Assembly: GCA_963839525.1 (NCBI GenBank)
Contig: CAWIVJ010000013.1
Coordinates: 3,183 to 67,182, forward strand
Length of the DNA stretch: 64,000 bases
Direction of reading: 5' to 3'
DNA from: an uncultured bacterium
GTDB taxonomy: Bacteria > Cyanobacteriota > Vampirovibrionia > Gastranaerophilales > Gastranaerophilaceae
Of this stretch, positions 1,783-64,000 are shown one piece after another (within the stretch, counting starts at the first letter, position 1; each line of letters opens with the position of its first letter). A model generated the notes under the pieces. That model searched no databases. It was not told the origin of the DNA and worked only from the letters and a program-made list of their open reading frames with translations. Position numbers and translations under genes: made by a program.

Positions 1783-3396
1783 ATGAATGGAATTTATATG
1801 CCAAATTTTTATTCTGGGTTTTCAGCGCCGGATATTTCAAGTTATTTAAACATGATGAATAGTTTTTCAAGTATTCAAACACCTCCGACTTATAATTTAC
1901 AATTGCCGGATATTTCAAGTTATTTAAACATGATGAATAGTTTTAGTTTTTCAGGTAATCAAATACCAATGCCGGATTATTCAAGTGTAAATAGAATTTT
2001 AAAAGAATCAAATGAAGCCAGAAGAAAACAAGAAGAAGAAGCTAAAAAAGCCGAAGAAGAAAGAATTAAAAATGAAAAAATTGCACAAGAAGAAGAATTA
2101 AAGCAAGCAATAGCAAAAGAAATTAAACAAATAAACGCTTTAAATGAAGCAAAAGCTTCGCTGGAAGGCAAAAAAGAATCTCAACCGAAGAAATTAAACT
2201 TTTTGGAAAAAATCGGTTATGGACTGAAAGGCTTATGTAAAAATGTTACAAATCTCTGGACAGATAAAGAAGGTAAATTCAGTTGGGCAAAACTAGGAAC
2301 TTCAGTTGCTATTGGCGCAGGAGTTGTAGCTTTAGATGTTATTACTTGTGGCGCATTAACACCTGTTTTAATAGGAGCAGGCGTAGTTCTTGGCGGATAT
2401 CAAACAATAAAAGGTGTATCGGAAGCATCTAAAGCCAAAACCAGAGAAGAAGAAATAAAAGCTTTTGAAGATATAGGAGAAGGAGCAGGAGCTCTTGCTT
2501 TATCTATTGTTAGCTTAAGAAGTGTTAACGCTGCAAAAAATGCCTCAAGAGCAGCAAAAGCAGAAACTCTTGCCACAACATTAATAGGTGAATTGAAAAA
2601 CATAAAAAATATTAAAGGTATTAATCTACAGTCTTTTAAAACTATTATAAACACATTAAAAAATGCAGGAGGAAATAAAAAAATCATTAATACCGCATTG
2701 AAAGAAATAAAAATTCTATCAAAGACAAAAGGTATTAAACTTCCTAAATCCGATAAAATTGTTCTTGAAACTATTAATAACTTAGCAGGAAAAGGTCTTC
2801 ATAATGTTAAGAATGCTATGGCCAATCCTTTACTTAAAGAAAGTAAAATCTTAACTGACTTAGAAGGAGTTTGCACTAAATTAGACGATATAGAAGGCTT
2901 AGGCTCTATAATTGCAAGATTAAAAAATGCAACTAACAGAAGTGAAGCTTTAAAGATTTTAAAAGAAGCAGGAAAATTAGCTAAAACTTCTGCTAAAATT
3001 GGAAAGAATGAATTAGAATTATTGTTAAGCCAACTTAAAAGACAGGTAATACAAGATAACAGCTTTGGAACACTTATAAAATCTAATTTATCTAAAGAAA
3101 ATCTGGTAAATATGGCAGTTACTTCAGGTGATAAATTTAAGAACTATCCTTACTTAAGTACTCTGCCAAGACTTTCAGTATCAGAAGTTGCAGCAGTTAA
3201 AATATCTAGTCATATTTCAGACGAAGTTGAAGCAGCAAAAGAAGCTGAAAGACTGGCAAAAGAAGTTTTAATGGACGAAATAGATGAAAAAATTAAAATA
3301 GAAGTAAAAGAATTAGCAAAACTACTTGATATAGAAATAAAAGACAAAACGTTTGAAGAAATTCAAGAAGAAATAGAATTAAAAATAGCAGCTTAA
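1783..3396 (+). CDS. hypothetical membrane-associated coiled-coil protein
   Basis: 537-aa ORF with GGAGG about 8 nt upstream of the ATG. It has an N-terminal duplicated PDISSYLNMMNSFS motif, a charged EEEAKKAEEE helix, a hydrophobic Gly/Ala/Val segment (TSVAIGAGVVALDVITCGALTPVLIGAGVVLGG), and a strong terminator after the stop. No family recognised. Confidence 0.6.
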   Translation: MNGIYMPNFYSGFSAPDISSYLNMMNSFSSIQTPPTYNLQLPDISSYLNMMNSFSFSGNQIPMPDYSSVNRILKESNEARRKQEEEAKKAEEERIKNEKIAQEEELKQAIAKEIKQINALNEAKASLEGKKESQPKKLNFLEKIGYGLKGLCKNVTNLWTDKEGKFSWAKLGTSVAIGAGVVALDVITCGALTPVLIGAGVVLGGYQTIKGVSEASKAKTREEEIKAFEDIGEGAGALALSIVSLRSVNAAKNASRAAKAETLATTLIGELKNIKNIKGINLQSFKTIINTLKNAGGNKKIINTALKEIKILSKTKGIKLPKSDKIVLETINNLAGKGLHNVKNAMANPLLKESKILTDLEGVCTKLDDIEGLGSIIARLKNATNRSEALKILKEAGKLAKTSAKIGKNELELLLSQLKRQVIQDNSFGTLIKSNLSKENLVNMAVTSGDKFKNYPYLSTLPRLSVSEVAAVKISSHISDEVEAAKEAERLAKEVLMDEIDEKIKIEVKELAKLLDIEIKDKTFEEIQEEIELKIAA

Positions 3397-19550: not shown

Positions 19551-20899
<1,349 letters not shown>

Positions 20900-21184
20900 T
20901 TATTCAATCCCGAACACATCTTTTGCGATTTGTTGCGCTGTTTCGGACGTTATAGGCTTGTAAGAACTTTTGTTTTCTATTTTCTCAACTGGCTTTTCGC
21001 CTATAGTGTCACGTATTGCGTTAAATGCTTGCACATCACCTTTTAAAGCCTTTTCAAAGAGTGCTAAACATAACTTTTGCTGATTTGTTTGTCCTTTATC
21101 ACCTTTAAGTTCAAGCAGAGCTTTCAGGGCATCTTTGAGTTTCTTTTTTTCACGTCTTGCTTCGCCTGATTTCTGGCCGCCCAA
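20900..21184 (-). CDS. phage terminase small-subunit-like protein (N-terminus uncertain; TTG start or truncated)
   Basis: GGQKSGEARREKKK ... ALKGDVQAFNAIRDTIGEKP resembles small terminase proteins from memory. The same frame is open upstream (NLKPLNTRTKDEQREIAS) without an ATG. Confidence 0.4.
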   Translation of the reverse strand: MGGQKSGEARREKKKLKDALKALLELKGDKGQTNQQKLCLALFEKALKGDVQAFNAIRDTIGEKPVEKIENKSSYKPITSETAQQIAKDVFGIE

Positions 21185-21331
21185 AGATGCAATTTCTCTT
21201 TGTTCATCCTTTGTTCTTGTATTTAAGGGTTTTAGATTTTAGTTGTTCATGGTTTTTCACCTGCCTTTACTGGAATATAATTAATCACTATTGGTTCCAT
21301 TTTTATTGTATTCATTATTTTTTTAACTTCC

Positions 21332-21565
21332 TCAGTGCTTATATTTAATTCTGAAGCAAGTCTTACCATATTCTGAATTCATTATTTCTTGCAACTTCCT
21401 CTCTGTCAATTTTTTTTGAGCAGTTTTTTCTTCGTTGTTAATTGGATAACTAACAGGGGAGTTTGTAAATTGAAGAAAGGGGGCTTGATACGATTTCCAA
21501 AAATCGTTCACCTTGTTTACTATTACTTGCTTTTCTAACCTTTCAAGTTTTGATTTAATATTCAT
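21332..21565 (-). CDS. hypothetical phage protein (77 aa)
   Basis: ATG preceded by AAAGGAGAGG directly after the upstream stop (operon packing). Confidence 0.4.
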   Translation of the reverse strand: MNIKSKLERLEKQVIVNKVNDFWKSYQAPFLQFTNSPVSYPINNEEKTAQKKLTERKLQEIMNSEYGKTCFRIKYKH

Positions 21566-21577
21566 AATACCTCTCCT

Positions 21578-22254
21578 TTAAAATAATAAAATATCTAAAT
21601 CATCGAACCAGCACTGCCCACCGTAATCTCCAAACCCTTGACAGCCTAAGTACACAATTAAACTTGTACTTAATGCCGTTGTATCAGTCATTGTATATGT
21701 GTGGGCAGGAGATGCAGGTTTTACTCCTGTTGTATTTACAGTAACTCCTACTTGCAAACCTCTTTTTTGAACAAAAACATAGTATTTAGAAGTACGTGAA
21801 AAATTATATGGATAACCTAATAGTGAATTATTATTTAAAATAGATAATGTTCCACCAGTGTTTACATCAGTGTGTATTCTAAATTCCAGTCCATATAAGG
21901 CACTAAAAAGCCCCGGGCTTCCTGTGCTTCCTCCAATAGATAATGCTACTCTTTCTGTGTTATATGGGAGAGCATCAGATGAAAGTTGGAAGCTAAATTT
22001 AAGGTCAAAACTACGGTTTATGTTGTAACTTTCTTTGAACTTTTAATTTAATAAGATTTATTGTATCCTGTTCCATAAGTATTACAATAAACCCTGCTTA
22101 CTGTTATCAGAGCCTTTCTATAAGAAAACCAATCCCAGTTATTATAAATATCGTACCAAACATTATTTGCGGGCGGAGTGTAGCTTGTACTAAAGTTTTC
22201 CGTAAAAGGCGTATAACCTCCGCAAAGTGATAATAATCTTTTATTATCGCTCAT
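21578..22254 (-). pseudogene. frameshifted phage structural-like gene (beta-rich, possibly LamG/jelly-roll-like)
   Basis: ORF 22048..22254 ends at TAA. A 157-codon start-less ORF (KFKESYNINRSFDLKFSFQL...GGQCWFDDLDILLF*) continues in another frame down to 21578. Confidence 0.45.
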
Positions 22255-48669: not shown

Positions 48670-49887
48670 ATGCAAGAATTTAAACTGAAAAATAATATAA
48701 AAGCTGTATATAAACAGAATAAAAACACGCCCAGAGTAGGATTAAGCTTTAATTTTTCAATAAATGAAGCAGAAAAATTACCCGGTGTTTATTGCTTGGT
48801 TAGCAGATTGCTTTTACAAGGAACCAAAAATAGAAATTCTGAGAAACTCGCAAAAGAATTGGATGAGAATGCTATTCAATTTTGCTGTGATATGAAACAG
48901 GATTATTTACGGTTTCATTTTGTTTGTTTGAACGAAGATTTTAAACATGCTATTGAAATTATGGCGGATGTTATTAAAAATTCAATCTTTGAAGAGTTCG
49001 ACAAAGAAAAAATAAAAATGCAGGGTGAAATTACAGCAGAACTCGATTCTGCAAGAGTTAAAGCTATTGATAATTATTATAAAACACTATATGAGGGGCA
49101 TTTTTACGGACATACTTATACAAAAATGCTTGAATACCTTGACAAAATAACAAAAGAAGATGTTATTGAAGCTTATGAAAAAATAGTTTTAACAAGCAAA
49201 AAAGTTTTATCTTTTGTAGGAGATCTTGGCTTTGAAGAAGTAAATGGGATATTAAATAAAAATTTAGGAGATATTGAAAATTCAAGTCCGCAAGAAAAGT
49301 CTATTCCAATACCTATTTTAAAAGAGAAAAAAACTGCTGAAATAGTTAAAAATGATGTTAAACAGGCACAAATTATTCAGGGTTGGATTATGCCTACTTT
49401 TAACAGCGAAGATTATCCTGCATTAATACTTTTAAATGTGATTTTGGGTTCTGCCGGACTTTCTTCAAGGCTTTTTCTTGAATTAAGAGATAAAAAAGGG
49501 CTTGCATATCATGTCAGAAGTTCTTACGAAACAAATGAAAAATGTGCAAATTTTAGCATTTATATCGCTACCGAACCTAAAAATGTTCAAGTTTGTCTTG
49601 AAGGATTCAAAACAGAAACAGAAAAATTAAAAAAATTCCCTGTTTTACAAAAAGAGCTTAGCGATGCTAAAAATAACATTATAGGAAAGCAGCAGTTTGT
49701 AACGGAAACAAACGCTCAGCAGGCAAATCAGCTTGCATATTATGGAATTATGGGACTTGGTTTTGATTTTCAGGATAAAATTCTTAACAAAATAAAAAAA
49801 GTTACACCTGAACAAATTCAAGATTGCGCAAATAAGTATTTTTCAGATAAATTTGTTGTTTCCATCCTAAAACCTGAAATTAATTGA
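48670..49887 (+). CDS. M16 (pitrilysin) family peptidase-like protein lacking the HxxEH zinc motif
   Basis: Overall M16 layout. The expected HxxEH position reads GVYCLVSRLLLQGT. Confidence 0.75.
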   Translation: MQEFKLKNNIKAVYKQNKNTPRVGLSFNFSINEAEKLPGVYCLVSRLLLQGTKNRNSEKLAKELDENAIQFCCDMKQDYLRFHFVCLNEDFKHAIEIMADVIKNSIFEEFDKEKIKMQGEITAELDSARVKAIDNYYKTLYEGHFYGHTYTKMLEYLDKITKEDVIEAYEKIVLTSKKVLSFVGDLGFEEVNGILNKNLGDIENSSPQEKSIPIPILKEKKTAEIVKNDVKQAQIIQGWIMPTFNSEDYPALILLNVILGSAGLSSRLFLELRDKKGLAYHVRSSYETNEKCANFSIYIATEPKNVQVCLEGFKTETEKLKKFPVLQKELSDAKNNIIGKQQFVTETNAQQANQLAYYGIMGLGFDFQDKILNKIKKVTPEQIQDCANKYFSDKFVVSILKPEIN

Positions 49888-50693
49888 AAAACACCTTTTA
49901 ATTCAAAATAATAACCTTGCTCAAGCAGTTCAAAAAATCTTTTTGTTGTATGAGGCGCGAGTGCGCGCACTCGCGCCTCATCGATGTAAATCCCTTCAAC
50001 AAGCCTTGCAAAAAGTTCTGCCGGTTTTGAATAATATTTATTTATTCGATTTATTCTTGCTGAAATACGTGCTTGTTTTTTTTGCGCTGATTTTAACCTG
50101 ATATAAGCACAAAAAGCTTTTGGCATATCCGGAAAATCATGTTCTAAGTTATCGATAGAAAAAATTTCTATATGTCTTAAAAATGTAGATATAACTTTAA
50201 TCCTGTCATATTTTAATAAATATTTTGCTTTGGTTTTTTTTATGTATTTATCAAATTCTCTAAATTTTTTTGAACGCATAAAATTCGGATAATCTTTTTT
50301 AATTTGCGCTTCAAAAATTTTTATTTTATTTTTAACTTGTTTTTTATGTTCGTGTAATTTTAGACAAAGTGAATTTTCATCAACGAAGCGGGTTATTGAG
50401 ATTAGTTCTTTTTCAATAATTGAAGTGTGAAAATCGGAGGGTGAATATAGAGAGGAATTAATATTGAACAATATTTCTAATCCGCCACCTGTTCTAACCA
50501 TATCAGGCTCTAATTTATTATGAATAAAATGCGAAAATTCATGCAAAAGAGTCGGTATAATACGTTCTTCTTTTGTATGTTTAGAAATATCAATACGGTT
50601 CCTTAGGAAAAATCCTTGATGTCCCCGTGCTTTAGTATTTGTGTAAACTTCAATTCCCAGTGATTTAAAGTATTTTATTAATTGTTTTTTCAT
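49818..50693 (-). CDS. hypothetical zincin-like protein (HExxH)
   Basis: LLHEFSHFIH motif; no family recognised. The 3' end overlaps the convergent M16 gene by 70 bp. Confidence 0.5.
   Translation of the reverse strand: MKKQLIKYFKSLGIEVYTNTKARGHQGFFLRNRIDISKHTKEERIIPTLLHEFSHFIHNKLEPDMVRTGGGLEILFNINSSLYSPSDFHTSIIEKELISITRFVDENSLCLKLHEHKKQVKNKIKIFEAQIKKDYPNFMRSKKFREFDKYIKKTKAKYLLKYDRIKVISTFLRHIEIFSIDNLEHDFPDMPKAFCAYIRLKSAQKKQARISARINRINKYYSKPAELFARLVEGIYIDEARVRALAPHTTKRFFELLEQGYYFELKGVFQLISGFRMETTNLSEKYLFAQS
49950..49981. repeat. 32-bp perfect GC-rich palindrome inside the CDS
   Basis: ATGAGGCGCGAGTGCG|CGCACTCGCGCCTCAT, verified base by base. Translated (minus) as DEARVRALAPH. Confidence 0.95.
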
Positions 50694-51793: not shown

Positions 51794-53179
51794 TTATTGT
51801 GTACCAAATATTTTTTGCGGATTAAGTATATTTTTCTCATCAAAAACATTCTTGATTTTTTTCATATATTCTAATGTTACCTCATCAATAGCATTTGTCA
51901 TGTATTTTGATTTTTCGCATCCTATACCATGTTCGCCTGAAAGAGTTCCTCCTAAATCAATTGCAAGCTGATGAATTTCATCTTTCGTTTTTGCATAATT
52001 TTTGACATCCTCTTCATCGTTTAAGTCAAGCGGAATATTCGGGTGAATGTTTCCATCTCCGATATGCCCCATTATACATACAAGAAGATTATTTTTATCA
52101 CAAATCTTTCTTATTCCTTTAACTAATTGAGCAATTTTTTCTCTGGGAACAACGATATCTTCAGCAACAACATTAGGTTTTAGCTTTGCACAAGCTGCAA
52201 AAGCGCTTCTGCGTGCTGTCCAAATCCGTATAGCATCTTCTTCTGTTTGTGAAAATTGAATTTCAGCTGCACCTGATTTTCTGCAAATATCTATAATTTT
52301 ATTTTGCTGATATTCAAGTGAAGTTAAATACCCGTCAACCTCTAAAAGCAAAGCCGCATCTTTGTCTGTTAAAAGCCCTGCAGGGTAAAATTGCTCTATA
52401 GTTTGCAGAGTTTTTTTGTCCATAATATCAAGAGTTGCAGGCATGAGCTTATTTTGTAAAATAACATTTACTGCGTGTGTTGCATCCGAAATTTTATCAA
52501 AATAGGCAAGAACAACTTTAGAACCTTCAGGTTTCGGAATTAATTTTACTAACGCTTCAGCTACAATGCCCAATGTTCCTTCCGAGCCGATAAAAAGTTG
52601 GGAAAGATGGTATCCTGTAGAATTTTTAGCTGTATTTGAGCCGGTTTTGATTATTTTGCCGTCAGCTAAAACTATTTTCAAATCAATTACATAATCTTTT
52701 GTTGAGCCGTACTTAAAAGTTCGCGGTCCCCCCGATGAAAGGGCAATACTGCCGCCAATGGTTGAAACACTTAAATTTGAAGGGTCCGGAGGGTAGAAAA
52801 GCCCGAGTTTTTCGACTTCTTGTTGTAATTTCCCTACAACAACGCCGGGTTGAACTCTTGCAGTTAAATTTTCCTGATTAATCTCTAAAATCTTGTTCAT
52901 TTTAGAAAAATTTAAAACAATTCCGCCTTTTTTCACAATACAGGCTCCGACAAGGTTAGTTCCTGCTCCGCGCGCTACTACTGGAATATTCTTTTCCCAA
53001 GCAAGCCTTACAATTTTTTGAACCTGCTGTGTTGTTTCAACAAATACAATAACATCGGGCAAATTTTCAATATTTTGTTTGTTTGTTGCATCAAGTGCGT
53101 AAACATAACGTTCTTCCAAGTCGATCAATACATTTTTTGAAGAAACAATTTTTTTAATTTGTTCGATTATTTTTTTCAC
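51794..53179 (-). CDS. FAD-linked oxidase (GlcD / D-lactate dehydrogenase family)
   Basis: FAD_binding_4-type N-domain (VVARGAGTNLVGA) and C-terminal GTLSGEHGIG. Confidence 0.85.
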   Translation of the reverse strand: MKKIIEQIKKIVSSKNVLIDLEERYVYALDATNKQNIENLPDVIVFVETTQQVQKIVRLAWEKNIPVVARGAGTNLVGACIVKKGGIVLNFSKMNKILEINQENLTARVQPGVVVGKLQQEVEKLGLFYPPDPSNLSVSTIGGSIALSSGGPRTFKYGSTKDYVIDLKIVLADGKIIKTGSNTAKNSTGYHLSQLFIGSEGTLGIVAEALVKLIPKPEGSKVVLAYFDKISDATHAVNVILQNKLMPATLDIMDKKTLQTIEQFYPAGLLTDKDAALLLEVDGYLTSLEYQQNKIIDICRKSGAAEIQFSQTEEDAIRIWTARRSAFAACAKLKPNVVAEDIVVPREKIAQLVKGIRKICDKNNLLVCIMGHIGDGNIHPNIPLDLNDEEDVKNYAKTKDEIHQLAIDLGGTLSGEHGIGCEKSKYMTNAIDEVTLEYMKKIKNVFDEKNILNPQKIFGTQ

Positions 53180-53261: not shown

Positions 53262-53297
53262 TAAAAAAAGTCGGGCAAGTATGCCTGACTTTTTTTA
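53262..53297. terminator. bidirectional intrinsic terminator after the giant gene
   Basis: A-run, AGTCGGGCA-AGTA-TGCCTGACT (one G-U pair), then T-run. Confidence 0.6.
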
Positions 53298-53305
53298 TTA
53301 TTACA

Positions 53306-56300
53306 TTATTCATCAACGTAGGAAGTTATTTTTTCTATACTTTTACCCAATTTAACAAGCTGTTTATCAATATTATCAACTTTTCTAGTTAATTTTGTAT
53401 CTACACCTGTTTCAGGAAGTTCGACCTTGCCTAAAACCTCTTGAACAAGAGATTTTAAATCAGTTTCTTTTGAAGGTTTTGCTTTAGTTAATTTTTCTAT
53501 TTTTACTTCAAGAGATTTAATTTTTTCTTCCTGCCTGTCAAATTTTTTGAAGAATTTATCCAAAAGTTTTTCAATATCGGTTGTTTTTACCATAGATTGT
53601 TTTATGTAGTTAATATTTTCATCAGCCTTATCTATCCATTCTGCGAGATACATAAAGGACTGATTAAAAATTTTGTCTGACTGAACGTTTGATAATAAAA
53701 CGTTATTAATATTATCAAGTCTTTTTTCAATTTTACCGATAGGTTCTTTATTGTCTAAATATTTTACCCTTTTTTCAAATTGATAAATAATATTTTTTAA
53801 ATCTTCTAAATTATTTTTTAAAACAGCATGTGATTCATCAGAATTTAATAAAATTTTATTAGTTCTGGTGCTTATACTTGTTATATCTTCACTTATTTTA
53901 TCCAAACCGCTAAAATCTCCGGTAGCGGCAGCAACAGTGCCTTTTGATTCTGAAAGTTCTTTCAAAATTAGTCTGACTTTTGCAATATCGGATTCAATAT
54001 CCTGCAAAGTATAAGAATAATCGGATTCTTTTTCAGAAGATTTGCTTGTGAGTTGGATGCATTTTTTAATTTCTTCTGTTTTTTCACTTACAAAATCTTT
54101 AATGTCCTCTGATTCGGATTCAAAAGAAATTTGATTAAAGAAATTTATAAGCCCTTCCCAGAGATCTTCTTTAAATAAAGTTAATTCGGAGTTTAACTCT
54201 TCTTTAATATTTTGTTCTCCCGGGGCAACATTTTTTTGCTTAAAATTCTCTATTTTTTCTTCAAAATCTTTGAGAGAATCTTGAATCTCTGATTTTATAT
54301 TTGCCAAAGTGCTTAATTCTGTCAAATTTTCTGTTTTTTCAATGCTTTCAAGTTTATTTATAAGAGATTCCTGAGAACTGAGCATTTGCTTAATGTCTTT
54401 GATATTTTCTTCAATTTCCGGGTTGGAATCTACTTTTAAAGAATCAAGTTTTTGATTTATTGTCTCTAATTCCTGTTTGACATTTTCTAAACCTTCTCCT
54501 GTCTCTGAAACAGTAGAAAGAGGAGAAACTTGAGTTTCAGGCAAAGAATCGAGTTTTTGGCTTATGGCTTCGATTTTTTCTGCTATTTCGTTTTTAGAGT
54601 TTTCTATTACTTCGTTAAAATCAAGATTTTTAAATTGCTCTTCGATTTTTTCAAGGTTTTCATCAAAATTAATTTGGTCAAGTTTATTTTGAATAGAACT
54701 TATTTCTTCTTGAATGTTAACTAAATTAGCAGATAACTCCATGCTTGAATTCAAACTAAGATCAACATAACTTTCTTTTAGTTCTGCTAAAGCTGATTTA
54801 ATATCTCCCAGTTTAATATTGACTTCTTTTCCCTGATTATCAAAATTAAATTCAAATTTATCAAGCTTTTCATTAATATCGTCATTTATAGATGTTTTCA
54901 AATTTTCCAAATGACATTCAATTTCTTCCGTTTTGCCAAGAAGATCTTTTATTTCTTGATTATCTTCTATTTTAGATAAAATCTTATTTTGTGCATCTTT
55001 AAATAAGTCATCAATATAGTTTTCGATTCCTTTATTGAAATCTTTTAGGTCCTCTTTAACACTTATTGACTTTATAGAATCTTCAATATTATCCGAAATT
55101 TCTAAAAACTTATCAAAAACTTCTGTTTTTAATTCTTCTAAACTTTGAGAAATTTCCTGTTTATTATCAAAAACTTCCATAAAAGATTTCAAGCTATCAA
55201 TACTATCATCAACTTTTTCATAAAAATTAAGTTTGATATCAGAAAGTAAAGATTGTGTTGATGTTTTATAATTTTCTTCAGACAAATTAATTTTATCTTC
55301 AAGACTCTCCGAAAGCGTTTTAATAGCGGAGTTTAATTCTTCAATTTTTTCAGAATTTTCTTTTATTGGCTTTTTTTCTTCTGAAAAAGAATCTAAAACT
55401 TCTTTCACGATTTTAATGTTTTCTTCAAGCTCTTTTAAAATTGTTGATTCTGTTTTCTCATGTGTTTCAGATATTTTGTCTAAAATAAAGGTTTTTATAT
55501 CATTTTGAGCTTGAAAAATATCAATTAAAAGCTCCGACTTATCTTTGTCTTTTAATTCTTCTATTTTACTTAAAATTGTTACCTTAACTTTATCTTGTTC
55601 TTGTAAAAAACCTTCTAAAGCGTCTGGTTTTATCTCACTTTTTAATTCTTCTATCTTGTCTAAAATAACTGTCTTTATTTTATCTTGCTCTTGAATAATA
55701 TCTTCTAAAGCATCCGGTTTTGTCTCATACTTTAGCTCATCTATTTTATCTAAAATAATTTCTTTTATTTCATTCTGTACTTGAATAATACTTTCGAAGT
55801 CTTTTAATTCTTCTATTTTTTCTAGAATATCTATTTTTATCTCGCTTTGAGCCTGAAGAATATTTTCAAGATTTTCAGATTTATTTTCATCTTTTAACTC
55901 ATCTATTTTATCTAAGATAACCGTTTTTATATCATTTTGAGCTTGAAAAATATCAATTAAAAGGTCCGATTTATCTTTGTCTTTTAATTCTTCTATTTTA
56001 CTTAAAATTGTTACCTTAACTTTATCTTGTTCTTGTAAAAAACCTTCTAAAGCATCCGGCTTTATTTCATCTTTTAATTCTTCTATTTTATCTAAAATAA
56101 GTGTTTTTATTTTATCTTGCTCTTGAATAATATCTTCTAAGGCATCCGGGTTTGTTTCATATTTTAGCTCATCTATTTTATCTAAAATAACTGTTTTTAT
56201 ATCATTTTGAGCTTGAAAAATATCAATTAAAAGATCTGACTTATCTTCGTTTTTTAATTCTTCTATTTTGCCTAAAATAAATGTTTTGACTTCATTTTGC

Positions 56301-59300
56301 ATTTGAAGAAGATTATCCAAAAAGTCAGGTTTTGTTTCGTCTTTTAATTCTTGTATTTTATCTAAAATAACTGTTTTTATTTCATTTTGGGTTTGAATAA
56401 TATCATCTAAAACATTCGGCTTTAATTCACCTTCAATTTTTAATTCTTCTATTTTGTTTAAAAGGACTGTTTTTACTTCATTTTGCGTTTGAAGAATTTC
56501 TTCTAAAGTATCGGTTTCTCTTTCATCCTTTAATTCTTTTAGCTTACTTAAAATAATTGTTTTTAATCTGTCTTGGGATTGAAGAATATTATCTCCAAAA
56601 ACATTTATTTTTTCTGAAATATCCTCATTTCCTGATGAAAAAAGTTCTTGTGTTGAAGAAGAAAGTTCTTCTGATAAAGAATTAATATTTTCTTTTATTC
56701 CATTTAAAAGTGTTATTTTTGTATTATCTTGTGTCTGGCTTATATTGTCTTCGAGAGAACTAATTTTCTCTAAAATTTCTTCTTTTAACTCCAAAGAAAC
56801 CTCTTTTGTTGAAGAAGAAAGTTCTTCTGATAAAGAATTAAGGTTTTCTTTTATTTTGTTTAAAATACCCGTTTTAGTATTATATTGAGATTGTTCCAAT
56901 TTTTCAGAAATAATACTTTTTAAGTCATCTTGCGATTGGGTTAAAGTATCTTCAAAAATATTCATTTTTTCTGAAAGCTCTTCCTTGACTCCTGAAAAAA
57001 TTTCTTGCGAAGAAGCTGAAAAATCTTTTGCAACAGCTTCAATATCTTCTTTTATTTCATATATTGCAGTACTTGCTTCACTTTGAGAAAAGGTTATTTT
57101 ATCTAAAACAGCATCTTTTGCTTCACCTTGTGCTTGAAGTATTTTATTTACAATACCGGTTGTTGATTTGTTTTGAGACTCTGAAATTTTATCTAAAATT
57201 AAATCTCTTGCTTCATCTTGCGCCTGAAGTAAAACATCTTCAGAAGTATTAACTCTTTCCAGTAACTCTTCTTTCGCTCCGGTAACGATTTCTTGAGTTG
57301 CCACCGAAGAATAATTTAATTCTTCAAGTCTATCGAGAACCGTTCCTAAAATACTGTTAATTGAAGTTATATTTTCAACTTTTTCATTTAAAATAGATTT
57401 TAACTCCACAATATCTTTTGTATTATCTGCATAAACCTTATAAATAATTTTGTCTAATTTAACACTTAAATTTTCAAAATCTTGCGAAAGTTTTTCAAAT
57501 AATTCCTCACTTTCTTTCTTCATATCATCATTAATTGAAGATTTAATTGAAAAGTAAGAATTGTTAATTTGATTTTTAATATCAATAAAAGAATCTTCAA
57601 AGTTTATTTCGGTAACTTTATTAACAGATTCACTGACAGAAATAAGTTTAGTAATAATTTCATTTGTTTTTGCGGTTAAAATCGTTATTAAATCAGTAGT
57701 TGTAAGATTTAACTGCATTTTTACTGCTTCAGTTTTTTCTCCGAGATCCTCAATAATTTCATTCAAAGTTCCGGAAGTAAAGCTTTTATATTCTTTTAAT
57801 TCATTGGAAACAATTTCAAATTTATCCTCTAATGTACTTAAGATACTTTGTAAAGAGTCATTATTTTTTATCGAAAAAGTTTCTTCCAATTGTGAAATAT
57901 CTATTGTAATGCTATTAAATTTTTGTTCTAGGCTGAAAGCTAAATCTTTAAGAGCAGGATCTTCTTTAAGTTTAGTTAAACCCTCTGTCATTGAAGTTAT
58001 TTTTGTTTTTATTTCAAACATTTCCTTAAAGGAATTATCAAGTTTTAAGTCGCTATCTTGCGTGATTTGCCGTGTAAATTCAAAATAATCTGTAAGCTTA
58101 TTTTGTAAATCCAGCAAAGTTAAATTGTAGTTTTCACCATATTGATTCACTACATCTTCAATATTTTCAATAACGTCATTAATTTGATTACTTACATTTT
58201 CACCAATTTCTTGATTTGATTCTCTTAAATCCTCTTTTATTGTGTTTAAATTTACTTTTAATGCAGTAATTTCATACAAAACCTCTTCTTTAAAAGGAGC
58301 GTCTTTTGAGAAAATTCCATTTGCCAGATTTTGAATTTTTTCTCCTACTTCAAGAATATTTTTTGAATTTTCTTCTATTAAAACTTTTTTTTCATTTTCA
58401 AAAGTAGCTTGATTTTCTTTAATTATTTCAGGCAAATTTGAAATTGAATTTTGCATTTCTAAAAAATAACCCTTTAAATCTTCATTAGAGCCTTTTTTTG
58501 CCTCTTCGATTTTATGGTTCAAATTTTGAATGTGCAAAGAAATAGTTTCAAAATCTACCTGCGCATTTTCTTTTAAAAATTCTTTGTGCTCATCAAACTC
58601 TTTTGATAAATCTTCAAAAAGTGAAATTATTTTTACAAGATTAGATTGACTTCTAATGTCAATATTTTCTTCAGCTACACTTAATTTTTGAGAAAACTCT
58701 TCAATATTTGCCTTTAATGACAGTCTTTCGTATTTAGAATTTTGTTCCAAATTTGCACTCACGGATTGAGTCATCTGAGTTAATTCTTCGACAGAAGATT
58801 TTAGTTCTGCAAAATTAACTTCATAACCTCTTGTTAAAACATCCTGTAAAGAGTTTAATTTTAAAGATAATCCGCCCATGATTTCTTTTATTTCAGAAGT
58901 ATTTTCTGTGTAGTTCTGCCCTAATGAATCTTTTACTGTAATTACCTCTTTGGAAAAATCTTTAATAATTGATAATAAATTTGTAAAATACTCTTGAGAG
59001 CCAAGGCTTAAATCTTTTTTGACCTCTTCTATTTTTCTTGCAATATCTTCAAATCCACTGGATACATTTTGTAAATTTTGCAAGGATGATTCGCTTAAAT
59101 TCTCTTTTACTGTCAAAACTTCCTGAAAAACTTTTTCTGCTTCGGAAAGCATAGTTTCTAAATTTCCGTTAGAATTTTGAATCATGACATTGCCGACATT
59201 AACGGCTTCTTCTTTTAAATTTTGCAATTTATCATCAATTACTGCCAAATTTTCAGTATTTTCAATATGCAATGATTTTTTTAATGAAAAAACATTCTCA

Positions 59301-60631
59301 ATAACAGACTGAATATTTTCAACAACTTTTGATAAATTAGTTTTAGAATCTTCAGTAATATCTTTTTTTGTTATTTCAATATTTCTATTGACTTCTAAAA
59401 TTCCCCTGTTAATATCTGAGGTGGTTAAATCTTTATTTCTTGCTATCTCTTGAAAAATTTCATTTGAAGTTTCAGAAATTTTTTCTTTTATACTATTTTC
59501 GGAATTTTTGTTTATTTGCGTAAAATTTACAAAAGAATTTTTTATATCCGTAGAATTTAAAAAATCATATAATTTTTTCAGCCCTGAATTAGTATCTGCC
59601 AAATCAGTTCTTATTAAATTCGTGCTTTCTATTACTTCCCTGGCAAATTCAGAAAGCTCTTTTCTAAAACCTATAAATTCTTCTTCAGTAGAAATATTCA
59701 ATATTTTCGATTCTAAACTTTCAAGCTGAGCCGTAAGCATTTGTTGATTTTGCTTACCCGTTTCGCTAAGCATGTTTTTTAACGCATTTATAACTCCTAC
59801 GCTTGTATCTATTTTTTCGGTTAAAATATCGAACTGGTTTTGCGTCGGCAGATTATTTACATAATCTGTTAACTGAATATTTTGGGCAATTAATTTTGCA
59901 ACCTGGTCTCTCTCAACTTCAAAATCTTCTTTTGTTACTACATGGTTTATGGTTTCTTCAAGTTCTCTGTTTTTACGGTCGATAACTTGCATTGTTGATA
60001 AAATGGCATTTGAAGATAGAAAAATATTTTCAATATCCTTTTTCAAAGCATCCAAAGCTTCTCTTGAATCAAGGTTTTGAAGAAGCTGATTCAGGTCTTT
60101 AAAGTTATCGTTAAGATTTAGAATAATCGATTCAAAACCATTGCCAAATTTTTCGATTCCAAGCTTAAGCGCAGAAATACTTTTTAGAATCTCTTTTGTT
60201 TGACTATCATCTTTTTGCAATTCTTCCAGTTTTAAATCTATTTCAGAAATTAATTCTTTTTGAGAAGAAAAATCCTTTGAAAAAGTATTTAAATTTGTTG
60301 CAATAATTTCAAAAAGGTCTTTTATTTCGGTTCCGGTAAGCTGTTTTTCTGTTTTTTTAAGGATTTCTGTAAAGGAATGTTCAATTTCGCCAAATTTAGA
60401 AGAAATAAAATCATGTCTTTCATCCAGGCTTCTTTTAAGTTCTACCAAAAAAACTTTCATCAAGTCAGAACCTTCTTGTTCCGCTAAAGTTTCTAATTGG
60501 TTGTTTATATTGGTTAAAACTTTATCTAAATTGCCTGCGTTCATGGCATTTTGTGCACGCATGGAATCTAAAGCCTCAGTAATATAAATAAAACTGCCTT
60601 TAATATCCCCAAAATTATTCATTTCTTCCAT
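53306..60631 (-). CDS. giant (2,441 aa) acidic coiled-coil repeat protein, function unknown
   Basis: Uninterrupted 7.3-kb ORF. Pervasive heptad-like E/K/L/I/N/S composition, no obvious signal peptide or TM segment, multiple repeat tiers, and a terminator after the stop. Confidence 0.8.
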   Translation of the reverse strand: MEEMNNFGDIKGSFIYITEALDSMRAQNAMNAGNLDKVLTNINNQLETLAEQEGSDLMKVFLVELKRSLDERHDFISSKFGEIEHSFTEILKKTEKQLTGTEIKDLFEIIATNLNTFSKDFSSQKELISEIDLKLEELQKDDSQTKEILKSISALKLGIEKFGNGFESIILNLNDNFKDLNQLLQNLDSREALDALKKDIENIFLSSNAILSTMQVIDRKNRELEETINHVVTKEDFEVERDQVAKLIAQNIQLTDYVNNLPTQNQFDILTEKIDTSVGVINALKNMLSETGKQNQQMLTAQLESLESKILNISTEEEFIGFRKELSEFAREVIESTNLIRTDLADTNSGLKKLYDFLNSTDIKNSFVNFTQINKNSENSIKEKISETSNEIFQEIARNKDLTTSDINRGILEVNRNIEITKKDITEDSKTNLSKVVENIQSVIENVFSLKKSLHIENTENLAVIDDKLQNLKEEAVNVGNVMIQNSNGNLETMLSEAEKVFQEVLTVKENLSESSLQNLQNVSSGFEDIARKIEEVKKDLSLGSQEYFTNLLSIIKDFSKEVITVKDSLGQNYTENTSEIKEIMGGLSLKLNSLQDVLTRGYEVNFAELKSSVEELTQMTQSVSANLEQNSKYERLSLKANIEEFSQKLSVAEENIDIRSQSNLVKIISLFEDLSKEFDEHKEFLKENAQVDFETISLHIQNLNHKIEEAKKGSNEDLKGYFLEMQNSISNLPEIIKENQATFENEKKVLIEENSKNILEVGEKIQNLANGIFSKDAPFKEEVLYEITALKVNLNTIKEDLRESNQEIGENVSNQINDVIENIEDVVNQYGENYNLTLLDLQNKLTDYFEFTRQITQDSDLKLDNSFKEMFEIKTKITSMTEGLTKLKEDPALKDLAFSLEQKFNSITIDISQLEETFSIKNNDSLQSILSTLEDKFEIVSNELKEYKSFTSGTLNEIIEDLGEKTEAVKMQLNLTTTDLITILTAKTNEIITKLISVSESVNKVTEINFEDSFIDIKNQINNSYFSIKSSINDDMKKESEELFEKLSQDFENLSVKLDKIIYKVYADNTKDIVELKSILNEKVENITSINSILGTVLDRLEELNYSSVATQEIVTGAKEELLERVNTSEDVLLQAQDEARDLILDKISESQNKSTTGIVNKILQAQGEAKDAVLDKITFSQSEASTAIYEIKEDIEAVAKDFSASSQEIFSGVKEELSEKMNIFEDTLTQSQDDLKSIISEKLEQSQYNTKTGILNKIKENLNSLSEELSSSTKEVSLELKEEILEKISSLEDNISQTQDNTKITLLNGIKENINSLSEELSSSTQELFSSGNEDISEKINVFGDNILQSQDRLKTIILSKLKELKDERETDTLEEILQTQNEVKTVLLNKIEELKIEGELKPNVLDDIIQTQNEIKTVILDKIQELKDETKPDFLDNLLQMQNEVKTFILGKIEELKNEDKSDLLIDIFQAQNDIKTVILDKIDELKYETNPDALEDIIQEQDKIKTLILDKIEELKDEIKPDALEGFLQEQDKVKVTILSKIEELKDKDKSDLLIDIFQAQNDIKTVILDKIDELKDENKSENLENILQAQSEIKIDILEKIEELKDFESIIQVQNEIKEIILDKIDELKYETKPDALEDIIQEQDKIKTVILDKIEELKSEIKPDALEGFLQEQDKVKVTILSKIEELKDKDKSELLIDIFQAQNDIKTFILDKISETHEKTESTILKELEENIKIVKEVLDSFSEEKKPIKENSEKIEELNSAIKTLSESLEDKINLSEENYKTSTQSLLSDIKLNFYEKVDDSIDSLKSFMEVFDNKQEISQSLEELKTEVFDKFLEISDNIEDSIKSISVKEDLKDFNKGIENYIDDLFKDAQNKILSKIEDNQEIKDLLGKTEEIECHLENLKTSINDDINEKLDKFEFNFDNQGKEVNIKLGDIKSALAELKESYVDLSLNSSMELSANLVNIQEEISSIQNKLDQINFDENLEKIEEQFKNLDFNEVIENSKNEIAEKIEAISQKLDSLPETQVSPLSTVSETGEGLENVKQELETINQKLDSLKVDSNPEIEENIKDIKQMLSSQESLINKLESIEKTENLTELSTLANIKSEIQDSLKDFEEKIENFKQKNVAPGEQNIKEELNSELTLFKEDLWEGLINFFNQISFESESEDIKDFVSEKTEEIKKCIQLTSKSSEKESDYSYTLQDIESDIAKVRLILKELSESKGTVAAATGDFSGLDKISEDITSISTRTNKILLNSDESHAVLKNNLEDLKNIIYQFEKRVKYLDNKEPIGKIEKRLDNINNVLLSNVQSDKIFNQSFMYLAEWIDKADENINYIKQSMVKTTDIEKLLDKFFKKFDRQEEKIKSLEVKIEKLTKAKPSKETDLKSLVQEVLGKVELPETGVDTKLTRKVDNIDKQLVKLGKSIEKITSYVDE
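55470..56590 (-). repeat. in-frame tandem array of about 12 x 30-aa units (L..I.Q.Q...K..IL.KI.ELK.E.K.D) with a block of about 300 bp duplicated at a 432-bp offset
   Basis: CATTTTGAGCTTGAAAAATATCAATTAAAAG recurs at 55501, 55933 and 56203. Blocks 55501-55790 and 55933-56220 are more than 90% identical by eye. Confidence 0.7.
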
Positions 60632-60822
60632 TAATTTTTATTCCCCACAAATCCTACAGCTAATATTCTACCAAAATTATTATTATAATGTATCTTATTA
60701 TTAAGATTGTAAAGTTAAAATTAACATAAATAAATATTCGGGGAGTTCGCCTATACTGGAACTCGGCTTCAAAGCTATTAACAACTTTACCAAAAGGTTA
60801 ACTTTATTAATGTTTCCGCTGT

Positions 60823-62348: not shown

Positions 62349-62579
62349 TTTCGTTTCTCCTTTTTTAAAAATACATTTATACAAAACATGCAAAATATTT
62401 TTTTTGTTAGCAAAAATTTAATTTATTTTATTTTTTATTGAATGTTGCTGATATAATTAGATTTTAGTCGTTTAAAAGTTAAGTTCACAATTCGTAATAA
62501 ATTAAAATAGGATTAAATTTAATTTATATAGTTGATTATTTGCTTTATCTCTTTTGGCTTTTTCTGTTATAATATCCTT

Positions 62580-64000
62580 ATGAAAAAGAATATTTTAATA
62601 ATTTTAAGCATAATAATATTAGCGGTTATTTTTGAAAAGATATTATCTAATGCAGCTCTTTTTGAAAATTTAGAATTAATGTCTTATGATCTTCGTTCAA
62701 GATTAATTTCAGATAACAGTATCTTAGGAAGAAGATTCAATCAAGCTGATAAAGATATAGTTATTGTTGCTATTGACAATTATTCCAAAAAAAAATTAGA
62801 AGAAAACCCTCGCAAAGATTTAGGTCCTTGGCCATGGCACAGAGATGTCTGGAGCGAAGTTTTAGATTTTATTGAAAAAGGTAAACCTAAAGCTGTAATG
62901 TTCGATATGGTTTTTGAGAGACTGAATGAAAACTCATGGCATGACCGAAGATTTGCTCAAACTTTGAGACGATATGAGAATATTGTTCTTGGAACTTACC
63001 TTGACAACCCTAAAGTTTCAAATGATACTTTTGCAAAAAAGATTAAAATAGGACAAAATGATTACTTGCCTACATCACAACCGCTAAATGTTTTTATTGA
63101 CAATAAGAAACTTGAGAATGATATAACTTATTACACAAATGCCCCTGTTCACAGTCTTTATACCGAATATAATATTATTGGCGTTTTAAATAAAGTCCTG
63201 GATAAAGATAATAATGTAAGACAGGTTCAGCCTTTGTTTAAACTTGTTAAAAATGGTGAAATTTATTATATGCCTTCTTTGGCCTTTGCCGGATTTTTAA
63301 AATATATGGGCGTAGTAGAAGATATAGCTATTAAAGAAAATAAAATATTTTATAAAGGCAGGGTTATTCCTATTGATAATGACGGAACCGTAAACCTAAA
63401 CAGACATAAATTAAAGCGTGCTTATTCTTATATCCCTATATCAAAAATTTTATTGAATAAAGGCAGAAGGAAAGATTTGCAGCCGGAGTTTTTCAAAGAT
63501 AAACTTGTAATTATCGGTAAAACAGCTGCAGGAGGAAGAGTTGATTTAAGTTCTATTATAGATCCTTCTTATACGAGTCCTGAAGCTAATGCCATTGCGC
63601 TGGATAACTTTATAAACGATTCAATAGCAGGAGATAAAACTGCAAGGAAATTTATTTCAGAAGTCCCTAAACCAGTTCAGTTTCTCATAACAGTTTTCGC
63701 CTGCATTTTAGTCGGGGTATTGGGATGGTTTTCTAAAAGTGCTTTTATTGGTTTTGTAAACGGTTTTCTTTCAATCCTTATTTATATTTTGTTTTGTTTT
63801 TGGCTTTTTGTAAATCCTAACTCAAGAATCTGGCTTCCTATTGTTGTACCGATATATTATTTAGCTTTGACCTCAGGAATAGTTTTTGCTTTTAAATTTT
63901 ATAAAGAGATGATTAAAAAGGCTTCTTTAATGGAAGCTTTTGGCAAATTTGTTTCACCGAAAGTCTTAACCACAATATTAAATAATCCTGAAAAAATGGT
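62580..64000 (+). CDS. CHASE2 sensor-domain membrane protein (probably an N-terminal part of an adenylate/guanylate cyclase-type signalling protein), 3' partial
   Basis: Frame open from ATG 62580 to the window end. TM helix, then DIVIVAIDNYS...LGPWPWHRDVWSEVLDFIEKGKPKAVMFDMVF (CHASE2-like), then a cluster of TM helices near 63.7-63.9 kb. Not in the ORF track because no stop lies in the window. Confidence 0.75.
   Translation, partial: MKKNILIILSIIILAVIFEKILSNAALFENLELMSYDLRSRLISDNSILGRRFNQADKDIVIVAIDNYSKKKLEENPRKDLGPWPWHRDVWSEVLDFIEKGKPKAVMFDMVFERLNENSWHDRRFAQTLRRYENIVLGTYLDNPKVSNDTFAKKIKIGQNDYLPTSQPLNVFIDNKKLENDITYYTNAPVHSLYTEYNIIGVLNKVLDKDNNVRQVQPLFKLVKNGEIYYMPSLAFAGFLKYMGVVEDIAIKENKIFYKGRVIPIDNDGTVNLNRHKLKRAYSYIPISKILLNKGRRKDLQPEFFKDKLVIIGKTAAGGRVDLSSIIDPSYTSPEANAIALDNFINDSIAGDKTARKFISEVPKPVQFLITVFACILVGVLGWFSKSAFIGFVNGFLSILIYILFCFWLFVNPNSRIWLPIVVPIYYLALTSGIVFAFKFYKEMIKKASLMEAFGKFVSPKVLTTILNNPEKM

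Follow-up and report, generated by a model that had tools for sequence, protein, structure and literature searches.

The locus studied here raises a simple question: what kind of protein does a streamlined bacterial genome keep in a gene of 7 kb? The gene lies in a stretch of 64,000 nucleotides (the window; positions 3,183 to 67,182 of contig CAWIVJ010000013.1, assembly GCA_963839525.1) from an uncultured bacterium of the Gastranaerophilaceae. It occupies positions 53306..60631 on the minus strand, starts with ATG and contains 2,441 codons and a stop codon (7,326 nt), so that the single uninterrupted 7.3-kb open reading frame (ORF) of a preliminary description, made from the letters alone, is retained. 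The genome (2.12 Mb) contains one copy of this gene, which takes up 0.35 % of the 2.1 Mb; it is the second-longest ORF and the sole giant helical one. We tentatively propose, at slightly less than even confidence, that its product is an elongated structural protein of the cytoplasm, alpha-helical throughout, which acts as a rod, scaffold or spacer and assembles or docks through its conserved ends.

The translated protein has a mass of 279 kDa, a pI of 4.52 and a net charge of -206. Its composition is dominated by Glu (13.3 %), Leu (11.5 %), Lys (11.1 %), Ile (10.4 %), Ser (9.1 %), Asn (7.9 %), Asp (7.5 %) and Thr (5.6 %), whereas there are 18 Pro, 2 Cys and 2 Trp residues in total; the computed values agree with the acidic character and the eight dominant residues named earlier. 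No transmembrane segment was found in the giant protein, the highest 19-residue Kyte-Doolittle mean being 1.13. Its N-terminus is polar rather than hydrophobic, and no signal peptide was observed either here or in any other member of the family. No match to an enzyme or any other known domain passed the threshold in Pfam, NCBIfam or PDB sequences. All three absences had been noted before, as had the impossibility of a family call. Placement in a well-characterised family, which would have overturned that view, did not result from searches of Pfam, NCBIfam, PADLOC, PHROGs and PDB sequences and profiles: the profile matches were sub-threshold. The candidate assignments (apolipoprotein, IF3_C, ZorA tail, tape measure, designed SNAREs, syntaxin, apoA-IV) were rejected as sub-threshold and driven by composition. 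Profiles of the two ends, a check suggested in the preliminary description, were also searched; the N-terminus matched apoA-IV at E 8.5e-6 and the C-terminus syntaxin at E 0.04-0.07, and neither end could be placed in a family.

The relatives of the giant protein form a family of narrow distribution. A word-indexed search found 181 of them, more than 70 being full length at 35-53 % identity; the sole named one is a hypothetical protein from a metagenome-assembled genome of Gastranaerophilales. A profile of the C-terminal 310 residues, compared with 1.84 billion representative sequences, had matches in 431 clusters, of which 224 fell below 1e-30. Fragments aside, the domain stands at the extreme C-terminus of proteins of 1,000-2,700 residues in all of the top 150 of these 431 clusters. 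Among GTDB species representatives, 127 stretches encode relatives, including one from the complete genome MEL.A1. Their titles mostly mention Gastranaerophilales, Gastranaerophilaceae or Melainabacteria; the others are generic or apparently mislabelled. A single intact copy without internal stops is present in all of the approximately 99 sampled genomes (23 genera) of the GTDB family to which the window belongs, and whole-genome searches of about 200 genomes from other families of the class produced four marginal matches only. The matches of the N-terminal domain profile are likewise confined to the same GTDB family. The phylogenetic distribution, which the preliminary description had wished to see determined, is thus restricted to Gastranaerophilaceae, with the gene essentially absent from sister families. 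The 64 full-length members vary in length from 1,040 to 2,779 residues, and the start codon of the window's gene is at the position seen in relatives. We found no paper on this protein in the literature.

Since each sampled genome of the family has one intact copy and the sister families have almost none, the gene points to a core, lineage-specific function rather than to a mobile or defence gene. An origin from phage or a defence system is excluded by its universal, single-copy presence at a fixed chromosomal position. Strong purifying selection, earlier deduced from the intactness of the gene, is plausible: none of the sampled genomes of the family has a disrupted copy, and in the assembly of the window even the EF-Tu gene is split. 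An important lineage-specific role would follow from the intact single copy across dozens of genera.

The ends and the centre of the protein evolve in different ways. In the family alignments, the N-terminal domain of about 370 residues is well kept in closer relatives and the C-terminal one, about 290 residues long, is strongly kept family-wide, whereas the centre is hypervariable and cannot be aligned. The N-terminal domain has hydrophobic periods of 3.44 and 3.74 and contains the motif ILNISTEEEFIGFRKELSEFA at residues 308-330 (59642-59710). The C-terminal domain is marked by ISFESESEDIKDFV, DYSYTLQD(I/V)ESDIAK(V/L)RL, SIS(T/S)RTNK(I/L)LL(N/T)SDES, MYL(A/G)EWID and F..Q..(K/R)I..LE, also written as DYSYTLQDVESDIAKLRL, SISSRTNKLLLTSDESY, MYLGEWID and F..Q..RIDRLE. 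Nearly every member of the family closes with the tail IEK(L/I)TSYVDE(E). The motif ILNISTEEEFIGFRKELSEFA at the end of the N-terminal domain resembles FNQISFESESEDIKDFVSEKT at the start of the C-terminal domain (residues 2165-2185, 54077-54139), with an hhalign probability of 76 %. In one large gut genus the segment of the N-terminal domain that bears ILNISTEEEFIGFRKELSEFA is repeated several times within the rod.

In the C-terminal helix F..Q..(K/R)I..LE (residues 2364-2375, 53507-53542), Q2367 is invariant and occupies a heptad core position. By analogy it is reminiscent of a buried polar layer, such as the zero layer of SNAREs or the Asn and Gln residues that set the register of coiled coils. 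SNARE motifs are about 53-60 residues long, have a Q/R layer at their centre and come with a membrane anchor. A SNARE-like identity was rejected: the syntaxin matches are the weak ones given above, the helix has about 36 residues and is bounded by Pro or loops, and there is no transmembrane segment.

The centre, although variable in sequence, has a constant periodicity, and this periodicity is not that of a canonical coiled coil. The preliminary description had reported pervasive heptad-like periodicity. However, in approximately 75 % of the protein the period is 3.62-3.66 and rests on a 29-residue unit, over its whole length the protein has a hydrophobic period of 3.66 rather than 3.5, and only the end domains are heptad-like (3.44, 3.46). 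By segment, the rod has periods of 3.62-3.70, and about 3.58 in its third part. Autocorrelation over residues 380-1090 has maxima at lags 29, 58, 87 and 116, with a minor peak (0.19) at lag 51. In the first part of the rod, coherent power at 3.64 climbs to 12.7 times random over 448 residues, whereas power at 3.5 drops to noise. The 29-residue unit, best seen in a run of ten copies at residues 425-715 that is missing from the earlier list of repeats, consists of three heptads with core positions 1, 9, 12, 16, 19, 23 and 26 and of an 8-residue polar stretch that follows them, positions 2-8 being polar and rich in S, N, G and E. Altogether 7-8 of the 29 positions belong to the core. A helical wheel drawn at 3.625 has a hydrophobic face about 120 degrees wide; K/R residues line the edges of this face and D/E residues lie opposite to it.

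The same physical properties are retained across the family. In the 64 full-length members the dominant rod period is 3.62 (range 3.48-3.72) with 3.5 power at noise, and the net charge is from -0.076 to -0.121 per residue despite the turnover of the sequence. As period and charge are constant, selection appears, judging from these comparisons, to preserve the end domains and the physical nature of the rod, and not its sequence or length.

All three tiers of internal repeats claimed for the giant protein were observed. The first is a tandem array of approximately 13 units of 30 residues with the consensus PDALEDIIQxQNxIKTVILDKIEELKDExK, many of the units being punctuated by Pro. The second is formed by the SSST/SSQE..EL..E.I.EK modules, whose pattern in the second part of the rod is ..SEELSSST.E....E.I.EKI....D.I.Q.Q...K..IL.KI..; these modules exist, but their length is nearer to 52 residues (52-67) than to the 45 proposed. 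The third is a duplicated block of 96 residues. At the DNA level it corresponds to the most similar repeat pair of the gene, 55878-56177 and 55446-55745 (300 nt, 89 % identity). The motif ILDKIEEL occurs ten times in the 30-residue array and not at all in nine of the closest relatives. Thus the expansion of the array is lineage-specific. The 96-residue duplication is lineage-specific as well.

Structure prediction was done with AlphaFold2 on family alignments of 32-34 sequences each. The C-terminal 310 residues were modelled as ten helices (predicted local distance difference test score, pLDDT, 64.6; predicted template modelling score, pTM, 0.22). The N-terminal 640 residues (pLDDT 60.5, pTM 0.26) gave eight helices of 26-48 residues with loops of 2-5 residues up to residue 360, and then, from residue 363, helices of 91, 113 and 62 or more residues. 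In total 950 residues were modelled, 84-93 % of them as helix. Modelling of segments, suggested at the outset, thus yields predicted all-helical folds, but at low confidence. Foldseek found nothing meaningful in the PDB for the N-terminal model (best E 0.2). Mean-field direct coupling analysis of 303 C-terminal sequences (effective number of sequences, Meff, 116) hinted at antiparallel helix pairs, with the last C-terminal helix placed against the TRTNK and EWID regions; the clustering of the couplings is not significant compared with random pairs (P = 0.15).

Several observations favour an internal rod. There is no hydrophobic N-terminus or transmembrane segment and no enzyme domain, the models are helical, and conserved ends flank an unalignable centre. 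Phase coherence at 3.64 spans more than 400 residues, and the narrow core suits helix-helix packing. The chromosomal position is fixed amid genes of central metabolism. A possible mechanism is as follows. The hydrophobic seam, which at this period would run nearly straight along the helix, may drive lateral self-association, and the product would be an unsupercoiled rod or bundle of two or a few strands. The conserved heptad-like end domains would provide specific contacts, either end to end or with fixed partners. Lateral association and end contacts together would therefore make the giant protein a scaffold, a spacer or a cytoskeleton-like element. At full extension it could reach up to approximately 0.27-0.37 micrometres, on the order of one cell width. 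The step from a helical rod with conserved ends to a scaffold, spacer or cytoskeletal role is one that we infer.

Other observations weigh against this proposal. AlphaFold confidence is low at both ends (pLDDT 60-65, pTM 0.22-0.26), and the fold and the oligomeric state are not established by such models. The G/N/S-rich 8-residue stretch of each unit could form loops, in which case the protein would be a chain of short helices and not a continuous coiled coil. The charge pattern, with K/R at the edges of the hydrophobic face and D/E opposite, together with the sub-threshold apolipoprotein matches, fits a surface-coating helix equally well. Conserved ends with a hypervariable centre are also typical of exposed surface fibres. 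Finally, no partner gene was identified.

A bolder version of the rod proposal, which we consider unlikely, is that the family constitutes an unrecognised, lineage-defining cytoskeletal or ruler element. Its members would be straight, non-supercoiled rods of 29-residue period, 0.15-0.4 micrometres long, that dock or polymerise via their conserved heptad-like ends, with the invariant SYVDEE tail packing on the TRTNK/EWID regions and the genus-specific length setting a cell dimension or a spacing. The rods of 1,040-2,779 residues with shared ends are a natural series for tests of a ruler or spacer function. Only if a cytoskeletal or ruler role is true would the protein represent a new principle. 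The case is of some importance, as Gastranaerophilaceae are a widespread group of gut-dwelling relatives of cyanobacteria, uncultured and almost undescribed in their cell biology. The gene offers a handle on their cell architecture (as an antigen or tag for cryo-electron tomography or for imaging coupled with fluorescence in situ hybridisation) and a marker for the family, and for the structural biology of coiled coils the protein is a clean new case of a 29-residue (3.62) helical repeat.

The first alternative, which we regard as unlikely, is that the protein is a giant amphipathic-helix coat of the apolipoprotein, perilipin or phasin kind. Its units of 29, 30 and 52 residues would lie flat on a membrane or on a lipid or polymer inclusion. 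It is equally unlikely, as part of the same explanation, that the acidic outer face makes a charged, non-aggregating coat and that the conserved ends anchor or regulate it. The top Pfam match is indeed Apolipoprotein A1/A4/E (PF01442; 51.8 bits, E 1e-13, best stretch residues 1183-1372), and nearly all relatives carry Apolipoprotein as their precomputed Pfam label. However, the score is well below the curated gathering cut-off of 90 bits, and such matches are common for any long amphipathic helix. In the N-terminal profile search, apoA-I and apolipophorin III followed apoA-IV with weaker matches. The helical wheel is class-A-like, the unit lengths keep successive hydrophobic faces aligned, and the Pro punctuation of many 30-residue units is reminiscent of apolipoproteins, whose 22-mers are Pro-punctuated. 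On the other hand, a net charge of -206 disfavours binding to anionic bacterial membranes, the core stripe (7-8 of 29 positions) is narrow, and the two highly conserved end domains are left unexplained. No genes for the synthesis of storage lipids or polymers were seen nearby, although no search was aimed at them; to our knowledge, none are known in 2-Mb fermentative genomes of this kind.

The second alternative, an exported or surface fibre, seems very unlikely. Such a fibre would leave the cell without a classical signal peptide, for example via the flagellar-type export apparatus, and the ends would serve export, chaperone binding and assembly. Variation of an exposed centre under pressure from the host or from phages, the other part of this explanation, is just as improbable. 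Flagellins and fibrillar surface proteins have conserved termini and a variable centre, and the giant protein is similar to them in its conserved termini and in its hypervariable centre with turnover of repeats; its termini are moreover heptad-like, and it is acidic and poor in Cys. The apparatus is also available: FHIPEP/FlhA was found in 100 and FliP in all 101 of 101 family genomes, often as two sets, and in the window's own genome the giant gene has, 5.5 kb upstream and in the same orientation, a fliMN-O-P-Q-R cluster. However, the other 77 of the 78 loci compared are neither in nor beside flagellar or secretion operons and have 2-oxoacid:ferredoxin oxidoreductase (kor) and glcD genes as neighbours. 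Sister families without the giant protein have FlhA orthologues too (59-69 % identity), and FlhA and the giant protein are thus not specifically co-distributed; the flagellar link was therefore rejected as specific evidence. No similarity to a flagellar axial protein, a hook-associated protein (HAP) or a ruler was detected by sequence or profile in Pfam and NCBIfam, and an identity as a flagellar axial protein or type III substrate was rejected, there being no flagellin, hook, HAP or FliK T3S4 domain. For a folded helical protein of 279 kDa to be such a substrate would be without precedent, and no member has an anchoring motif or a signal peptide.

There is hardly any probability in the last alternative, raised in part in the preliminary description, by which the gene would be an artefact, either a chimera or a repeat that collapsed in assembly, or else a frame without function that happens to be open in a genome rich in AT. 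The assembly does have faults elsewhere (the EF-Tu gene in three ORFs, an odd tract with GC content 0.19) and the gene holds tandem repeats. However, over its full length the protein aligns as one collinear high-scoring segment pair with each of four relatives (2,295-2,618 residues) from independent assemblies, the gene is intact in about 99 genomes and has more than 400 clusters of relatives, its start agrees with theirs, and its repeat copies, at most 89 % identical in DNA, are too divergent to collapse.

The features of the giant gene and of its flanks are listed in Table 1.

Table 1. Candidate domains, repeats and flanking signals of the giant gene, with positions in the window and residue numbers in the giant protein (aa, amino acids).
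Feature	Residues	Position	Strand	Description
Promoter-like site		60685..60713	-	TTTACA, 17 nt, CATTAT, 5' of start; consensus match only
Shine-Dalgarno-like GGGGA		60642-60646	-	5' of start; consensus match only
Conserved N-terminal domain	1-370	59522..60631	-	many invariant columns in alignment of closer relatives
Rod part 1	371-1090	57362..59521	-	amphipathic helices, period 3.64
Ten 29-residue units	425-715	58487..59359	-	cleanest run; row layout, helical wheel
Rod part 2	1091-1348	56588..57361	-	modules of ~52-67 aa, period 3.70
30-aa tandem array	1349-1740	55412..56587	-	~13 units, 90-nt DNA period
96-aa block, copy 1	1471-1566	55934..56221	-	87-95 % aa identity to copy 2
96-aa block, copy 2	1615-1710	55502..55789	-	87-95 % aa identity to copy 1
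Rod part 3	1741-2150	54182..55411	-	helical, non-repetitive, period ~3.58, moderate conservation in close relatives
Conserved C-terminal domain	2151-2441	53309..54181	-	family alignment; period 3.46
Terminator-like hairpin		53263..53289	-	17 nt past stop; 8-bp stem, one A.C mismatch, 4-nt loop, T7
GlcD-like FAD-linked oxidase gene		51794..53179	-	Pfam FAD_binding_4 + FAD-oxidase_C; 3' neighbour of giant gene

The terminator attributed to the gene in the preliminary description is partly borne out. An imperfect hairpin with a T-run was found by eye downstream of the stop codon, with an A-run 5' of it; however, it was not called by a scan for consensus terminators. In most relatives the next gene starts about 30-50 nt after the giant gene.

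The neighbourhood, whose conservation was to be checked, is indeed conserved. In 74 of the 78 loci the giant gene has glcD directly downstream on its own strand, usually at a distance of a few tens of bases, and the genes of CutA and of an unclassified HExxH protein often come next. In most genera a divergent four-gene kor operon (delta, alpha, beta, gamma) and the gene of pyruvate phosphate dikinase are situated upstream. In the lineage of the window the upstream block is rearranged and the dikinase gene is now downstream, whereas the giant gene and glcD have stayed together. As these neighbours are housekeeping genes, we take the linkage to glcD for inherited synteny, perhaps accompanied by co-transcription, rather than for a clue to function; none of the conserved neighbours (kor, dikinase, glcD, cutA, the HExxH protein gene) provided a functional lead. 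The fixed place ahead of glcD, the two conserved end domains, the invariant tail and the confinement to a single bacterial family, which tell most about the giant protein, are all absent from the preliminary description.

Some other genes of this region deserve mention. The HExxH protein of the window (49818-50693, minus strand; 291 residues, HEFSH) belongs to no family and has a weak IrrE/M78 match (E 0.026); 49 of the 78 loci have its gene two to three places downstream of the giant one. At 62532-63998 on the plus strand, and continuing to C13:67796 in the genome, there is a gene for a 693-residue protein in which a CHASE2 sensor is fused to an adenylate/guanylate cyclase domain, followed by an NFACT (RqcH-like) gene.

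The genome contains two paralogous sets of flagellar export genes (C13:69358-73019; C5:98307-103368; C5:118249-124155), the C13 set lying just past the high end of the window. One cluster encodes FlhA, an FlhB-like protein, FliR, FliQ and FliP in this order. Another consists of fliE, fliF, a gene for a 320-residue protein of no family and fliH, and a second FHIPEP gene comes after it. In a second fliMN-fliO-fliP-fliQ-fliR cluster there is a FliQ-like ORF of 163 residues. About half of the family genomes have two copies of FHIPEP and FliP. Flagella have been published for some Gastranaerophilales only and were lost at least once (PMC4451040); the near-universal presence of FHIPEP and FliP in the family sits oddly with this patchy distribution.

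Two peculiarities of the assembly were noted. The EF-Tu gene (C7:227431-228497) is broken up into three ORFs in a row (88, 198 and 64 residues), with no ribosomal-protein cluster adjoining it. The split implies frameshifting indels in the assembly, which are either sequencing errors or marks of a decaying copy, and it gives a context to the frameshifts mentioned in the preliminary description. In the window, the 2-kb bin 20001-22000 has a GC content of 0.19 and an AT skew of -0.64; this anomaly is probably either an artefact of assembly or a peculiarity of the prophage-like island there.

It remains to compare the giant protein with known systems. Proteins resembling an SMC tether had been suggested as one possible parallel. 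This suggestion fails, as the giant protein has neither ATPase heads nor a P-loop: an SMC/Rad50-like tether was rejected in the absence of any SMC_N, AAA or P-loop family match in Pfam and NCBIfam and of a conserved GxxxxGK[ST], the string LGKS near the C-terminus not being conserved across the family. ZorA of the Zorya system was rejected too, as only the tail of the ZorA3 profile (positions 450-784) matches, at 31.5 bits, the protein has no transmembrane segment, and the scanned neighbours include no MotA/ExbB or ZorB-type family. The match to tape measure proteins in PHROGs is weak and covers helical regions only, and was rejected as well.

The apolipoproteins (PF01442; apoA-I, A-IV, E and apolipophorin III) share with the giant protein tandem amphipathic units with aligned faces, Pro punctuation, the layout of charges and a weak, repeated profile similarity. 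However, its units have 29, 30 and 52 residues instead of 11 or 22, its size is ten times theirs, it lacks a signal peptide and has conserved ends, and it is bacterial and presumably cytoplasmic.

The polar hub and landmark proteins HubP and FimV are large docking platforms with acidic repeats; they are anchored in the membrane, having LysM and a transmembrane segment, and their acidic regions are largely disordered. The giant protein is likewise very large, very acidic, repeat-containing and non-enzymatic, with conserved terminal modules and a variable acidic middle. However, it has no transmembrane segment and no homology to these proteins, and its middle consists of amphipathic helices rather than of disordered regions.

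SF-assemblin and beta-giardin, proteins of the striated fibres of eukaryotic flagellar roots, form non-supercoiled 2-nm filaments that assemble laterally. Their rods of about 250 residues are built on a 29-residue repeat with 8 turns (3.625), each unit comprising four heptads and a skip residue. The rod of the giant protein has the same 29-residue repeat by autocorrelation and row layout. However, its unit is made of three heptads and an 8-residue polar stretch, and the organisms and the cell context are unrelated. These proteins were not among the Pfam matches up to E 1. Together with Scy they are the nearest physical analogues of the giant protein, but its membership in their family fails for want of homology.

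Of the bacterial filament proteins considered in the preliminary description, Scy and FilP are the closest in physical terms. Scy is a long non-canonical coiled coil of 51 residues per 14 turns (3.64) beside a canonical heptad part and acts as a self-assembling scaffold (PMC3718342). Membership in this family is not supported: searches of Pfam, NCBIfam and PDB sequences revealed no homology, all relatives found for the giant protein belong to Gastranaerophilaceae, and no direct comparison with Scy or FilP sequences was made. The giant protein also differs from Scy in its unit (29 residues per 8 turns, not 51 per 14), in its N-terminus (a 370-residue multi-helix domain instead of a 63-residue coiled coil and hinge) and in its C-terminus (a large domain, conserved, whose tail is invariant); its length is nearly double that of Scy, and it is strongly acidic and from another phylum. 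The analogy nevertheless stands: in both cases the proteins are very long, all-helical, non-enzymatic and (here presumably) cytoplasmic, the rod period is close to 3.64 (here 3.62-3.64), and a heptad-like part adjoins the rod. The giant protein represents a new family of a known general kind, the long helical-rod proteins of bacteria, set apart by an unusual period of 29 residues, by its conserved termini and by its strict confinement to one bacterial family, and Scy and FilP provide a plausible model for its self-assembly and recruitment of partners.

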